DNA of 64,000 bases from a virus. The translations under genes and the position numbers were made by a program. Under the pieces are notes generated by a model that saw nothing but the letters and a program-made list of their open reading frames with translations, had not been told where the DNA came from and did no database searches. This document shows, piece by piece, positions 30,201 to 62,306 of this stretch (positions are counted from its first letter, which is position 1; every line of letters begins with the position of its first letter). The stretch covers positions 57,352 to 121,351 of the IMG/VR virus record IMGVR_UViG_3300044472_000055; one strand, written 5' to 3'.

Positions 30201-30293
30201 ATTGCGTAGCGATGCCCTGCGCGGCTTTGCGACGCTATGCCTAGCACTGTGTGGCACTGCGCTGCGCTGCTCGGCATTCCACTCCAAGGTCAC
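30201..30293 (+). repeat. pentamer tract 1: (NNN-GY)x15 + CCAAGGTCAC; putative guide-like RNA
   Basis: GC/GT every 5 nt from 30204 to 30274; tail at 30284. Confidence 0.85.
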
Positions 30294-30369
30294 CCTCGTC
30301 TAGCTAACTTGACGAGCTGTTTCGCCTATGGGACGCTCTCCTCATCCCAATCACTACGGGAGAGGAAAT

Positions 30370-30462
30370 ATGGCAAAGAAGAAGCACTGCAAGTTCGGCA
30401 AGGTCTCGCGCGGTCGCCGCAAGGGCCAGTGTCGCAAGTCGCGCAAGACCAAGCGCAAGTAA
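30370..30462 (+). CDS. 30-aa protamine-like basic peptide
   Basis: MAKKKHCKFGKVSRGRRKGQCRKSRKTKRK with GAGGA RBS; below the ORF-track cutoff. Confidence 0.65.
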   Translation: MAKKKHCKFGKVSRGRRKGQCRKSRKTKRK

Positions 30463-30555
30463 GGTCGACGCGAACGTGATCGCCGTCGAGTGCATCTCCC
30501 GTAGGTAGCGCTCGGCGGCGATTTCGTTTCAACCACCCTAAGACGAGGTCATCTC

Positions 30556-30861
30556 ATGCAGGTCTTGAAAACGTTCGAGCAGACTTGGCAATTCAAGCCC
30601 GGTGACCCGAACCAGTATCAGCGCGAAGCTTACGTCGGCGTTCCCGGCGGCTACGGCTCCTTCTACTTCGACCGCGTCCCGAACACCGCGACCCTCGGCA
30701 ACGTTCGTGGCCTCGGCTTCTGGTCGAGCATCCCTTCGCTCGGTCAGGCCGCGATCGTCGCGGTGCTCGCCACGGCAGCGGGCTACCTCGGCATGAAGCA
30801 TCTCGGCCCGACGGTGAAGCAGAAGTTCGGTCTCTCGGGCGCCCGGCGCCGTCGGCGGTAA
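30556..30861 (+). CDS. small membrane protein ending GLSGARRRRR
   Basis: GAGG RBS, TM segment, basic tail. Confidence 0.7.
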   Translation: MQVLKTFEQTWQFKPGDPNQYQREAYVGVPGGYGSFYFDRVPNTATLGNVRGLGFWSSIPSLGQAAIVAVLATAAGYLGMKHLGPTVKQKFGLSGARRRRR

Positions 30862-30866
30862 CCGCC

Positions 30867-33800
30867 ATGGCCCTCATCATGGGTCTGGAAGGGCTGCGCG
30901 GAAACCGACTCCTCGGTGTTCGCGGGCTCGGGCTCATTCCGCCGGCACGTGCGACGACGCTCGCCGGCCTCTACGGCACGTTCGATATCATCAAGCGCCA
31001 CCCACTTTTGATCCTTACCGGCATCATCGCAGGTGGCTGGTGGGCAGCTTCAAAGCTCGACGGCCCCAAGGGCTCGGCAGACGCGTGGGGCTCGCAGCGT
31101 ATGGCGCAGTCACGCGCCCGTGCCCTCAGTGGAGCGCAACAGACGAAGATCGGGAGCGTGACGGTGGTTCGTGATGGTCGTCGCGTGTACACCATGCGCA
31201 ACGGCAAGGTCCGCACTGACCGTACGCACGACGATGAGGCCACGGCACGCCACGATTACAAAGCGACAATCGACTACTACGCGGAGCCGTAATGAGCAAA
31301 AGCAGCAAGCGCACTGAAGCCTCTCGTCTCGCGACTCGTCGTCGCTTCGAGGAAGCGGCGCCTCCACGCCACACGTCGATCATCGTGCGCGGCCCCAAGA
31401 AGAGCGCGAAGCGCGCGGCCGCTCGCCATGGCATCTCGACCGAGAGCTGCTACGAGCAGGGCAAGGACGTGCAGTGCTTCGTCCCCTGCACCCCGAGCAC
31501 GAGCGATCGCCTCGACAAGTGGTACGGCAAGGGTCCTCGCAATCGCAGCACGACGCGGACGTGGGCCGCGCCCGGCACGCTGCTCTACGTCGGCCGCTGT
31601 CCGGCACCGGGGCTCAGCGGCGCACGTCGTCGCAAGCGCAGGTAGCCCGCGCATCCGGCTTTCAAGCCGTGTAGGCTCGGAGCATGGCGAAAACACGCGC
31701 ATGCGCAGCACCCGGAACAGTCTATGAAATGCACGGCGGGCGTCTGCAAAAGACCTCAATCGACAAGACGTACTGCGGCAGTATCGAGAAGGTCACTAGC
31801 ATCAAACATGGTGATTTCCGCGTGTCACAGCATGTTGTCGTGATCTCCGCTGGTGGCCGAAAGTTGTGGGTGCCCGTCAGCCGTATCAAGGCTGGGAAGG
31901 CACGCCACAAGCGCTGAGCGTAGGTAGCTCGCGCATCCGGCTTTCAAGCCGTGTAGGCTTGAGGGTATGGCAAAGCGCAGCTGGAAGAGGGTCCACAAGT
32001 CGAGTGGAGCCACGGTTATCGAGCGGGGCCCCAAGGGCGCTGCACGCTGGGCTGTGTCCTGCAACGGTGATCATGATCGTGGTTCTTCGACGAGCGTTGC
32101 TCGCGCAAAGACCGCAGCAACCCGCGCCGCGAAACGCATGAAGAAGGGCTAGTTCAATGAAGGCGATCCAAACGAAGTATTCCGGCCCGACGAACACGCG
32201 CGGCTCGCGCGTTGTCGCGACCGATGGTGATGGACACCGCGTGTCTGTGCCGTTCGATGATTCGACCGGCGGAACGCAAGGCGCGCATCGTAGGGCTGCG
32301 CTTGCTCTGTGCAAGAAGCTGGACTGGAACGGCTGCGAACGTCTCGTCGGTGGTGCACTCGCGAAGGGTTACGCCTTCGTGTTCGTACCGTCTGATTGCA
32401 GGTGCGCACGGCCGCTCGAAGGCTTGCGCGGAACACGAGGTCGTCGTCAGAAAGGACGTCGCTAGCCATGGCCACGCCGAAGAAGAACATCGAGTGGAAC
32501 AAGGTGCCCGCGACCGCGTGCATCGAAGATCGCGGCAAGTACTACGTCGCGCACATGGGCCGTACGTCGGCCGTCGTGTTCTGGGGCAGCCAGGATGCGC
32601 GTCAGGCGCAGGCCACGCTCTGGGCGCTCGCGCAGGGCAGCAAGAACCAGCGCATCTGCGGTGATCTCTTCCGCAAGACGCGGCCGCTTCCCGGCCTGCG
32701 TGGTGCGCGCCGTCGTCGGAGGAAGTGATCATGGCGAAACAACGTTTTCGAGCAATCGGTCCCAACGAAGATCATCACGCCGGTTCTTTTCAGCGTGCGC
32801 TTCATCTCGCGACGGAGCGCTCGCTCGCGCTACGCAGCACGTATGAGGTGGTTCGCTGCGTCCCCGACAAGCGCCATCCTGAAGGAGAGTCGTGCACGGG
32901 GTTGGCTCGCGTGACGGTGCGGCGCACGGGGGAAGCACGTCCCGCCAAGCGCCGCCGCCGTGAGGGAGACGAATAGTCGTGGCGAAGAAATGCAAACCGA
33001 CTGCACGTCAGATCTGCTCGGCGTCTACCGCCGACAGTCGTGGCGTCTTCATGCGTGGTGACGTTCGTACGGCAGCTGGTTCGGTGTGCATCGCCGACTG
33101 GATGCTTCGCCACGGTCACTTCGAGAAAGCTGGTCGTGCGGCTGGCGGGCGTCCACTGTACATCATGACGCGCAAGGGTCGCCGTATGTCCGAGAAGGCG
33201 TGCGAGACGGTCTACGGACGTCGCGGAAGGAAGTAGCTCGTGCCGAAGAAGCCCAAGTTCGAGAAGCTCTCGATCAACATGGAGCGTCGCGGTGAGCTGC
33301 GCTACGCCACGGCGTACAACGCACGTGACGCCGCGAAGATCGCGACGAAAGCTGCAAAGCAGGGCTGGGATACGACGGTGCAGTCGTTCAGCAGCCTCGG
33401 CACGAAGCGCGGCATTTACATGGAGTGCCACTCGTCGAAGGTCAGCGCCGGACGTGATCCGGGTTTTCTTGCGAAGGCTGTCGCACGCTGCAAGCTGAGC
33501 CCCGCATTCAAGAAGCGCCTGCGAGGTCGCTGATGCGTAAGGGTCCGCTGACCAACCGCGAGGTCAAAGCCGTGACCAGCGCAGTTCTAGACGAAGTCCT
33601 GATGGGCTCGAAATCGAAGGTGGTAGGCTCGGGCATGGCGAAGAAGCGGAAGAGGGTTGGTCTCGGTTCGATGAAGCTGGTTGATGCCATTCGTCCGGGC
33701 TGCCGCGTGACGATCGTCAACCGCTTCGGTCAACAGCGCACCGGTACGGCCGTCATGCGTGGCCCACACGGTTGGGTGTTGAACATGGGCGGCAAGCACG

Positions 33801-61384: not shown

Positions 61385-61388
61385 GAGA

Positions 61389-61495
61389 AACTCCTTGGGA
61401 TGGTCTGCAGGGCGTTGCAAGCATCGCACTAGACTGCATCGCCCAGCCGGGCGTTGCTCCACGTAGCGAAACCACGCGCCGCCGTGCGAGGCGCA
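61389..61495 (-). repeat. pentamer tract 11: 18 units (one 1-nt slip) + CCAAGGAG
   Basis: RC at 5-nt spacing 61407-61491; begins just after the RAMP-like stop codon. Confidence 0.85.
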
Positions 61496-61500
61496 GAAAC

Positions 61501-62139
61501 TTACGCGGCCTTTGTCTTCTTCGCGTCCTTGTCGGTGACCGCGACTTCGCGCTGCCACTTCGTGACGTTGAAGCGGCCCATCGGACCCTTGCGATCCGGG
61601 CGCCAGTCGCCAAGGCCGATCTTCGAGCCGAGGTCGTCGACGAGCACACGCACGAGCGCCTCGTCGAACATCTTGCCGTCGACGATCAGCGTGAACGGCA
61701 GCTTCCATGCATCGAAGCGCGGACGGTGACACATGATGCGACCACCCGTCGACGGGATGACGACCGAGCGCGAATCGACCTCCCACTGGATCGGAGCATC
61801 CGGCTTGAACGGATCGACAAGCACGCACTCCAGCTCTTCGACCTGCACGCCAGCGGGCACGAGCGACGAGCGGCCCGTCGTGATCTGCTTGCGCCCCGCC
61901 TTGTGGAACTTGCCGGCGGCGATGAGACCGCTGAACACGTTCGGGCCGGGGATCATCGGCTTGCCGTCACCGGTCATGTAGAGCTTGGGCTCGGCCTGCT
62001 GACGCGGCGTGCCCTTCTCGTTCACCTTGATCGCGCTCGACGTGCCTGCGCTGACCTGCGCGGCGTTGCCGTCGGTGAAGCGGTTCATGAGGATGGGCGA
62101 AGCGCCCTGGATTTCGACGAAGATCTTGTACGTGGACAT
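61501..62139 (-). CDS. stand-alone RAMP/Cas7-like RNA-binding protein (212 aa)
   Basis: first strand + SPIL (KIFVEIQGASPILM), PMIPGPNVFSGL, thumb-like DSRSVVIPSTGGRIMCHRPRF, C-terminal Gly-rich loop IGLGDWRPDRKGPMGRF; AAGGA RBS. Confidence 0.75.
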   Translation of the reverse strand: MSTYKIFVEIQGASPILMNRFTDGNAAQVSAGTSSAIKVNEKGTPRQQAEPKLYMTGDGKPMIPGPNVFSGLIAAGKFHKAGRKQITTGRSSLVPAGVQVEELECVLVDPFKPDAPIQWEVDSRSVVIPSTGGRIMCHRPRFDAWKLPFTLIVDGKMFDEALVRVLVDDLGSKIGLGDWRPDRKGPMGRFNVTKWQREVAVTDKDAKKTKAA

Positions 62140-62186
62140 GTTTCCTTGCTGTTGTTCGAGTTGCTGTTTGGTTGTCAAAGAGCGAA

Positions 62187-62306
62187 GTGACCTTGGAGAG
62201 CGCTGCGCGGCTATGCATGGCGCAGCCGCACATTGCATCGCGTAGCCGGACGATGCCTGACGATGCGTTGCGCCGCATCGCTTTGCCGTGCGCCGCAGTG
62301 CTGCGT
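62187..62306 (-). repeat. pentamer tract 12: 21 units + CCAAGGTCAC
   Basis: 21 uninterrupted RC at 5-nt spacing 62200-62300; directly upstream of the RAMP-like gene. Confidence 0.9.

Follow-up and report, generated by a model that had tools for sequence, protein, structure and literature searches.

A dispersed family of pentamer-repeat tracts and a Vipr-like protein in a 121-kb phage genome: probable guide RNAs of a VIPR system

The locus and its tracts

The viral contig IMGVR_UViG_3300044472_000055 (IMG/VR) is 121,351 bp long, and its final 64 kb (positions 57,352 to 121,351; hereafter the window, meaning this whole stretch as analysed) carry a family of intergenic tracts made of five-base units together with a gene for a small protein of the RAMP type. 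Because a family A DNA polymerase, UvrD and SNF2 helicases, a Dam methylase and an integrase are encoded on the contig, it is regarded as a phage genome. The closest GenBank matches of the polymerase share less than 30% identity, and GenBank phages contain no DNA match to window positions 55400-63300. Tract boundaries were set by stepping upstream in register, five nucleotides at a time, from each [CG]CAAGG tail. This delimits 12 tracts of 13-30 units in the window, the unit being N-N-N-G-Y, and two further tailed tracts were found outside it at a lower threshold. The family thus counts at least 14 members, spread across the whole phage genome. We argue that these tracts are probably the guide RNAs (vrRNAs) of a VIPR system, an RNA-guided system of phages that is related to CRISPR and was introduced in preprints of 2026, and that the RAMP gene encodes its Vipr protein. 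The features are listed below, each tract being a candidate vrRNA; coordinates are those of the window unless stated otherwise.

61501-62139, minus strand: predicted vipr gene, encoding a 212-aa small RAMP/Cas7-like protein (phrog_4652, E = 9e-17)
62191-62304, minus strand: tract directly upstream of vipr; 21/21 units G-Y; tail CCAAGGTCAC, then a 51-nt leader
61393-61495, minus strand: tract directly downstream of vipr; about 19 units including one of 4 nt; tail CCAAGG 8 nt before a GTG start
60877-61000 (walk reaches 61010), minus strand: tract; 23/25 units G-Y; tail GCAAGG
59873-59966, minus strand: tract, first of a tandem pair; 17/17 units G-Y; tail CCAAGGTCAC; internal 30-nt duplication
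59763-59856, minus strand: tract; 15/17 units G-Y; tail CCAAGGA 9 nt before the ATG of a 70-aa Cys-rich open reading frame (ORF)
59285-59413 (walk reaches 59443), minus strand: tract, first of a tandem trio; 25/30 units G-Y; tail CCAAGGTCAC; 30-nt internal period, 2.9 copies
59192-59265, minus strand: tract; 12/13 units G-Y; tail CCAAGGTCAC
59083-59176, minus strand: tract; 15/17 units G-Y; tail CCAAGGA 9 nt before the ATG of a 67-aa Cys-rich ORF
57518-57631, minus strand: tract beginning 6 nt past the integrase stop codon; 19/21 units G-Y; tail CCAAGGA 8 nt before the ATG of a 116-aa Cys-rich ORF
55687-55760, minus strand: tract; 12/13 units G-Y; tail CCAAGGA 7 nt before the ATG of an 80-aa ORF
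43462-43545, minus strand: distant tract, 18 kb from vipr; 15/15 units G-Y; a 9-bp inverted repeat including the tail closes the tract
30201-30289, plus strand (the sole plus-strand tract in the window): distant tract, 31 kb from vipr; 15/16 units G-Y; tail CCAAGGTCAC
Genome positions 33594-33712, minus strand: tailed tract outside the window; 22 units, 17 of them G-Y
Genome positions 11879-11957, minus strand: tailed tract outside the window; 14 units, 10 of them G-Y

All 12 tracts of the window lie where an earlier inspection of the letters (the sequence-only reading) had placed them, its minus-strand coordinates running 4-5 nt beyond the last G of the tail. Its count of 13-24 units per tract is replaced by the 13-30 units of the in-register walk, while its distances of 18 and 31 kb between two tracts and the RAMP-like gene are correct. 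As it had described, the tracts are intergenic, follow the strand of the local genes and begin close to a stop codon or a previous tract: starts fall 5-17 nt past a stop codon, overlap the stop (43545) or come after the previous tail. The same holds for its claim of an in-register tail, as the CC of CCAAGG (GCAAGG once) occupies the G-Y slot in 12/12 tracts and the preceding unit also ends in CC in six of them. No single array is formed: between 62.3 and 55.7 kb, where the genes point leftward, ten guides occur as a trio, a pair and five lone tracts; two others lie 18 and 31 kb from vipr and two in the other half of the genome. Tandem Repeats Finder reports duplications within tracts of 10, 15, 25 and 30 nt, all multiples of five, and an internal GCAAGG at 60962-60967 may split the tract at 60877-61000 into two staggered guides.

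Perfect NNNGY runs of at least eight units give 21 strand-hits in the 121,351-bp genome, every one within window positions 30.2-62.3 kb. In 30 first-order Markov simulations such runs occur with a mean of 0.17 and a maximum of two, which bears out the expectation that the pattern is more frequent here than in simulated sequence. As GC is self-complementary, the period is visible on the opposite strand too; the true strand of a tract is fixed by the G-T exceptions and the tail, both of which occur on the gene strand only.

A predicted Vipr protein

VIPR systems comprise a phage-borne Vipr protein and vrRNAs in which 9-16 Y-N-N-G-G repeats precede a constant 3' tail (bioRxiv 10.64898/2026.04.26.720920). 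The vrRNAs of Escherichia phage SUSP1 are about 100 nt long, co-purify with Vipr and direct DNA binding and silencing; the protein buries G-G-Y and presents N-N, and pairing with DNA skips every third target base (bioRxiv 10.64898/2026.04.26.720920 and 10.64898/2026.04.26.720927). Binding by VIPR silences competing phages and satellites (bioRxiv 10.64898/2026.04.26.720920).

Pfam returns nothing for the 212-aa protein, and phrog_4652 is a family of unknown function. A profile built from 50 homologues (A1) matches one solved chain in the PDB, 36pp_D, annotated as 'SUSP1 Vipr protein', over residues 1-193 with E = 5.4e-39. In a single-sequence comparison with SUSP1 Vipr, identity is low and only residues 126-192 align (E = 1e-5). 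The AlphaFold (AF2) model of the protein (pLDDT 88.3, pTM 0.82) finds its top Foldseek matches among backbone subunits (Csm3/Cas7) of type III-A and type VII CRISPR effectors, with E from 1.3e-7 and a TM-score of about 0.55. As judged from this homology, the product of 61501-62139 is a Vipr protein, that is a small RAMP related to the characterised Vipr. Homologues of 53-63% identity occur in metagenome-assembled genomes of several phyla, from which the host cannot be inferred.

The residues that touch the repeat can be compared one by one. In the cryo-EM structure of SUSP1 Vipr (bioRxiv 10.64898/2026.04.26.720927), H17 and D177 read the first G (G1), R138 and W178 read the second (G2), and R179 belongs to the pocket for the third fixed base, which admits pyrimidines only. 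The contacts to G2 and the pyrimidine are kept in our protein, with R138, W178 and R179 corresponding to R139, W179 and R180, and D177 to D178. Across the 50 homologues R139 is invariant, and D178 and R180 are conserved in at least 90%. The G1-contacting H17 aligns with Asn19 in the profile alignment.

Linkage of tracts and vipr in related viruses

A DNA-pattern search of IMG/VR (reverse-complement tail, a gap of 3-13 and ten R-C units) returned 101 viral loci. Since the pattern required the tail, these loci are silent on how general CCAAGG is among such systems. A Vipr homologue (tblastn E <= 1e-3) is present within the few kb fetched in 55 of the 101 loci, a lower bound given how short many of the fragments are. 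Of the 73 tailed tracts in the loci with a homologue, 71 share the strand of vipr, and 19 of these loci have a tract that ends at most 200 nt upstream of the gene. Tracts are scattered over 20 kb in a complete relative of 138 kb with a 69% identical Vipr (G001) and over 14 kb in G005, a second relative. Together, this co-occurrence and the profile match to SUSP1 Vipr support the earlier suggestion that the tracts would form a repertoire of individual guides acting in trans with the RAMP-like protein, the tail being a putative handle.

In many relatives (L016, L015/L040, L028/L047, L050, L087) a terminator-like hairpin stands immediately 3' of the CCAAGG tail. With the hairpin directly after the tail, the guides of these relatives look like stand-alone small RNAs rather than intercistronic inserts.

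Interpretation as guide RNAs

The best explanation of the locus is that the tracts are vrRNAs of a VIPR system and that 61501-62139 encodes its Vipr protein, a reading to which we give a probability of roughly 0.88. Its grounds were computed here: the tracts with their statistics, the assignment of the protein to its family, the co-occurrence of tracts and vipr genes across phages, and the conservation of contact residues. Transcription of the tracts, their binding by Vipr and their targeting of DNA are inferred by homology. If the SUSP1 system is a guide, one Vipr protomer would bind each five-base repeat and the protomers would build a helical filament, each burying the fixed G and Y and presenting the variable bases. 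The latter would pair with double-stranded DNA while skipping each third target base, usually the wobble position of a codon, and the bound complex would silence genes of competing phages, satellites or prophages. Because each guide is placed after a stop codon and ahead of the following gene, in the leftward operon as well as at the four remote sites, the guides are probably cut from polycistronic transcripts. The likeliest route of release would be a nuclease acting on the polycistronic RNA while Vipr protects the tract, and CCAAGG would then be the probable shared 3' handle of the excised guides.

Several results weigh against this interpretation. The position equivalent to the first G of the published repeat (position 3 of our unit) is G in 23% of the units, below the 30% background, and the SUSP1 protein contacts that first G. 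No longer conserved or structured tail is seen at the 12 tracts, compared with the published pseudoknot tail of about 40 nt, and such a tail would have no room in five tracts because a start codon follows 7-9 nt after the tail. No accessory vap gene was recognised: of 19 proteins encoded nearby, not one is conserved beside vipr in the relatives, and clustering of the neighbours at 73 loci gave no dominant partner. No target emerged under seven pairing rules from the phage's own sequence or from about 1 Mb of loci (best score 0.77), nor from a comparison of the 24 guides of four complete phages with those four genomes under five rules; there, the only hits, at 0.80-0.82, came from guides of 10-11 units and are at chance level. 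An exact seed of eight units matched at least 80 loci of unrelated low-GC phage families among viral contigs, with a best full-guide match of 0.67, while two exact seeds of ten units, one searched in viral contigs and one in metagenome contigs, had no match. Finally, none of the listed sequencing runs that hold this DNA is on record as RNA.

The target search was weak and narrow, being made with exact seeds from 3 of the 14 guides and in local genomes, and the lack of a target therefore says little. On the supporting side, within the own genome no guide finds a match under any skip rule (best 0.70), as is published for VIPR systems, the guides of which are reported without matches to their own genome (bioRxiv 10.64898/2026.04.26.720920). 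The first G is taken up below.

Repeat composition and strain variation

Throughout the 189 G-Y units, position 4 is always G (100%), whereas position 5 alternates between C (90%) and T (10%) and never holds a purine, in keeping with the pyrimidine-only pocket of SUSP1 Vipr. Positions 1 and 2 are purine-rich and A-rich, resembling codon positions 1 and 2. Reading the triplets as sense codons was tried and set aside as too weak, with three stops in about 216 triplets versus about seven expected (hand arithmetic).

In the published register our unit is YNNNG. The Methods of bioRxiv 10.64898/2026.04.26.720920 state that some VIPR loci have 'NNNGG, YNNNG, and NNNNG' repeats, and since YNNNG is listed there, the missing fixed G1 is a recognised variant. 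The locus falls in a clade in which the first G of G-G-Y varies freely. Across the fetched loci, the share of G at position 3 declines with increasing identity to our Vipr, from 0.92 (<35%) over 0.72 (35-50%) to 0.44 (>=50%). In loci with at least 20 units, the G share averages 0.90 (range 0.65-1.0) where His stands at the G1 contact (n = 16) and 0.50 (range 0.09-0.81) where Asn does (n = 22). Two exceptions, L102 and L050, carry His and a low G share, with few units. The change from His to Asn at the G1 contact is a simple candidate cause of the relaxed repeat; the association probably lies within one clade and does not reflect independent events.

Strain variation was read from contigs of four metagenome runs over 55300-62700. 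At least 17 differences, among those listed, fall inside tract bodies; assigned by hand, positions 1 to 5 take 2, 3, 9, 0 and 3 of them, and 138 further differences lie outside this tally. All three differences at position 5 are T/C exchanges. Against an even spread, chi-square is about 13 (p about 0.01, by hand arithmetic), linked changes on one contig not being independent. In low-depth contigs of two runs (X1 and X3; window 62090-62354), the tract upstream of vipr is divergent, its tail being kept and its guide different or with indels. One low-depth contig passes from the kept tail into another tract that stays in register (loose end at 62185), which hints at replacement of guides behind a fixed handle. 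The vipr leader shows a 6-nt insertion and a 9-nt deletion at 62139-62151 in all four runs.

One speculation, which we consider unlikely, is that in the Asn-19 clade the base replacing the first G is also read, so that three variable bases would be offered per protomer and the target would be spelt codon by codon. This is allowed by the third base not being G-biased and holding 9 of the 17 listed strain differences, a pattern to be expected if the base followed synonymous changes in targets, and by the loss of the contacting His. It would imply a contiguous or three-of-five code, unlike the published two-of-five code with one skip. That the third base is merely an unconstrained spacer fits the data equally well.

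The tail, folding and alternative explanations

The alternative that survives best, improbable as we judge it, is that the tracts act mainly as cis-acting 5' leaders, in which Vipr or another multimeric RNA binder would cover AAGGA and control translation of the next gene. TRAP is a model for such control of translation by coating of a leader. The common tail is a motif of 6-10 nt, with TCAC added to the hexamer in 5 of the 12 tracts. Behind five tails (CCAAGGA or CCAAGGAG) the next start codon follows after 7-9 nt, so that the tail overlaps a Shine-Dalgarno-like AAGGA, and every tract lies in the gap that separates a stop codon from the following gene of its strand, as expected of a leader. 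The five CCAAGGTCAC tails, however, pass through a pyrimidine-rich stretch into a further tract or a longer leader and precede no start codon. Across the loci, an ORF start is not enriched after tract tails (32/104) compared with other CCAAGG sites (228/884), and the hairpin behind the tail in relatives points to a stand-alone small RNA. Hypervariable triplets and the replacement of guides behind a kept tail would, moreover, be senseless for a plain operator. A cis effect could exist alongside guide function, one possibility being that Vipr, once loaded on guides lying between cistrons, also controls whether the following gene is translated, by way of the AAGGA in the tail.

Less probable still is that some of the remote tracts (30201, 43545, and genome positions 33.6 and 11.9 kb) do not serve this phage as guides and are decoy or 'solo' vrRNAs that load the Vipr of a competitor or are aimed at a rival VIPR. 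Such RNAs are reported in bioRxiv 10.64898/2026.10.15.759431, and on a circular reading of the genome the four remote tracts lie 14-36 kb from vipr. They nevertheless agree with the tracts adjacent to vipr in their tail and in the relaxed type of repeat, and they show no match of at least 80% to the vipr genes or tracts of the fetched relatives, save for short guides at chance level. That the periodicity is a feature of the DNA without a role in RNA, such as slippage repeats, an array of sites for a DNA-binding protein or structure-forming DNA, is scarcely credible: the palindromic GC does put the period on both strands and internal duplications do come in multiples of five, but the G-T exceptions and the tail keep to the gene strand, 71 of the 73 tracts of relatives keep to the vipr strand, and the tracts show tight linkage to an RNA-binding protein of the RAMP type, a homologue of which was solved in complex with such an RNA.

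The tracts fold no better than shuffles of their unit order (mean z = -0.2 for 11 tracts), which fits a linear guide coated by protein. A structured RNA or riboswitch was rejected on this result and on a scan of the window at Rfam gathering thresholds, which gave four tRNA hits only, with no hammerhead or other family between the guides. Two-tier G-quadruplexes were rejected as the units are mostly without GG, and two early ideas, a TRAP-like attenuator leader and a restriction or methylation decoy, were dropped after identification of the protein. Consensus scans of 55000-64000 found no promoter-like sites, where 1.9 would be expected, and 12 terminator-like sites, where the expectation is 7.7 +/- 3.3; not one of the latter falls at a tract end. 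The tract at 43545-43462 is the sole clear outlier in folding, with z = -2.3 against unit shuffles and -4.9 against dinucleotide shuffles. In the same region (43457-43550), the plus-strand reading of the tract also ends in GCAAGG.

Neighbouring genes

Small Cys-rich, zinc-ribbon-like ORFs lie on the minus strand at 59541-59753, 58870-59073, 57159-57509 and 58636-58869, with a guide tail 8-9 nt ahead of the start in three of them. Those scanned have no match in Pfam or PHROG; their products might be DNA-binding partners of the system. On the plus strand, 80 nt downstream of the tract at 30201-30289, a 30-codon ORF (30370-30462) encodes a very basic, Lys/Arg-rich peptide with two Cys and has an AGGA-type site of its own. 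Elsewhere in the window, ARAGORN predicts a tRNA with a four-base anticodon in an 8-nt loop (4569-4642, minus strand).

Significance and comparison with known systems

As systems of the VIPR kind are already in print, the novelty of the locus is limited to a new example of the YNNNG type. It would be a clean natural example of this little-described repeat type, and it illustrates that sequence alone can reveal the full set of guides, distant ones among them, of an RNA-guided system described only very recently. Points of interest are the His-to-Asn change at the G1 contact, the minimal CCAAGG handle and the apparent insertion of guides one by one between the genes of a 121-kb phage. They have a bearing on the extent of repeat scaffold that the protein requires, on the maturation of guides without an array and on the engineering of shorter guides.

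Compared with Cas7/Csm3 and the CRISPR RNA of class 1 CRISPR systems, the protein shares the RAMP fold with its RRM core, G-rich loop and thumb, and the principle of one protomer per fixed guide step would be alike. The step is five nucleotides here versus six there, and repeats with interspersed variable bases take the place of a single spacer. Neither cas genes, CRISPR repeats nor an adaptation module accompany the locus: a Pfam scan of the vipr neighbours gave no Cas family, Tandem Repeats Finder found no repeat with a period of at least 40 in the genome, and the Rfam hits in the window were the tRNAs only. With the solo or orphan vrRNAs of F5 satellites and VIPR-null phages, described in bioRxiv 10.64898/2026.10.15.759431, our remote tracts have in common that they lie far from a vipr gene. 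They differ in that the same genome also encodes Vipr and in that they share the local type of tail.

The closest counterparts are the type II VIPR systems of Escherichia phage SUSP1 and of a Pseudomonas fulva prophage. These and our locus have a stand-alone RAMP protein of about 200 aa, tandem pentamer tracts on the same strand up- and downstream of its gene with a 3' tail shared among the tracts of a system, and fixed G and pyrimidine positions with conserved contact residues. All are phage-borne, without a CRISPR array and without guide matches to their own genome. Relative to SUSP1, the first G is lost here (G in 23%) along with the change from H17 to Asn19. Relative to published VIPR systems, the tail is a motif of 6-10 nt versus a pseudoknot of about 40 nt, no vap gene is recognised, the tracts have 13-30 units versus 9-16, and at least 14 guides are dispersed genome-wide between protein genes.

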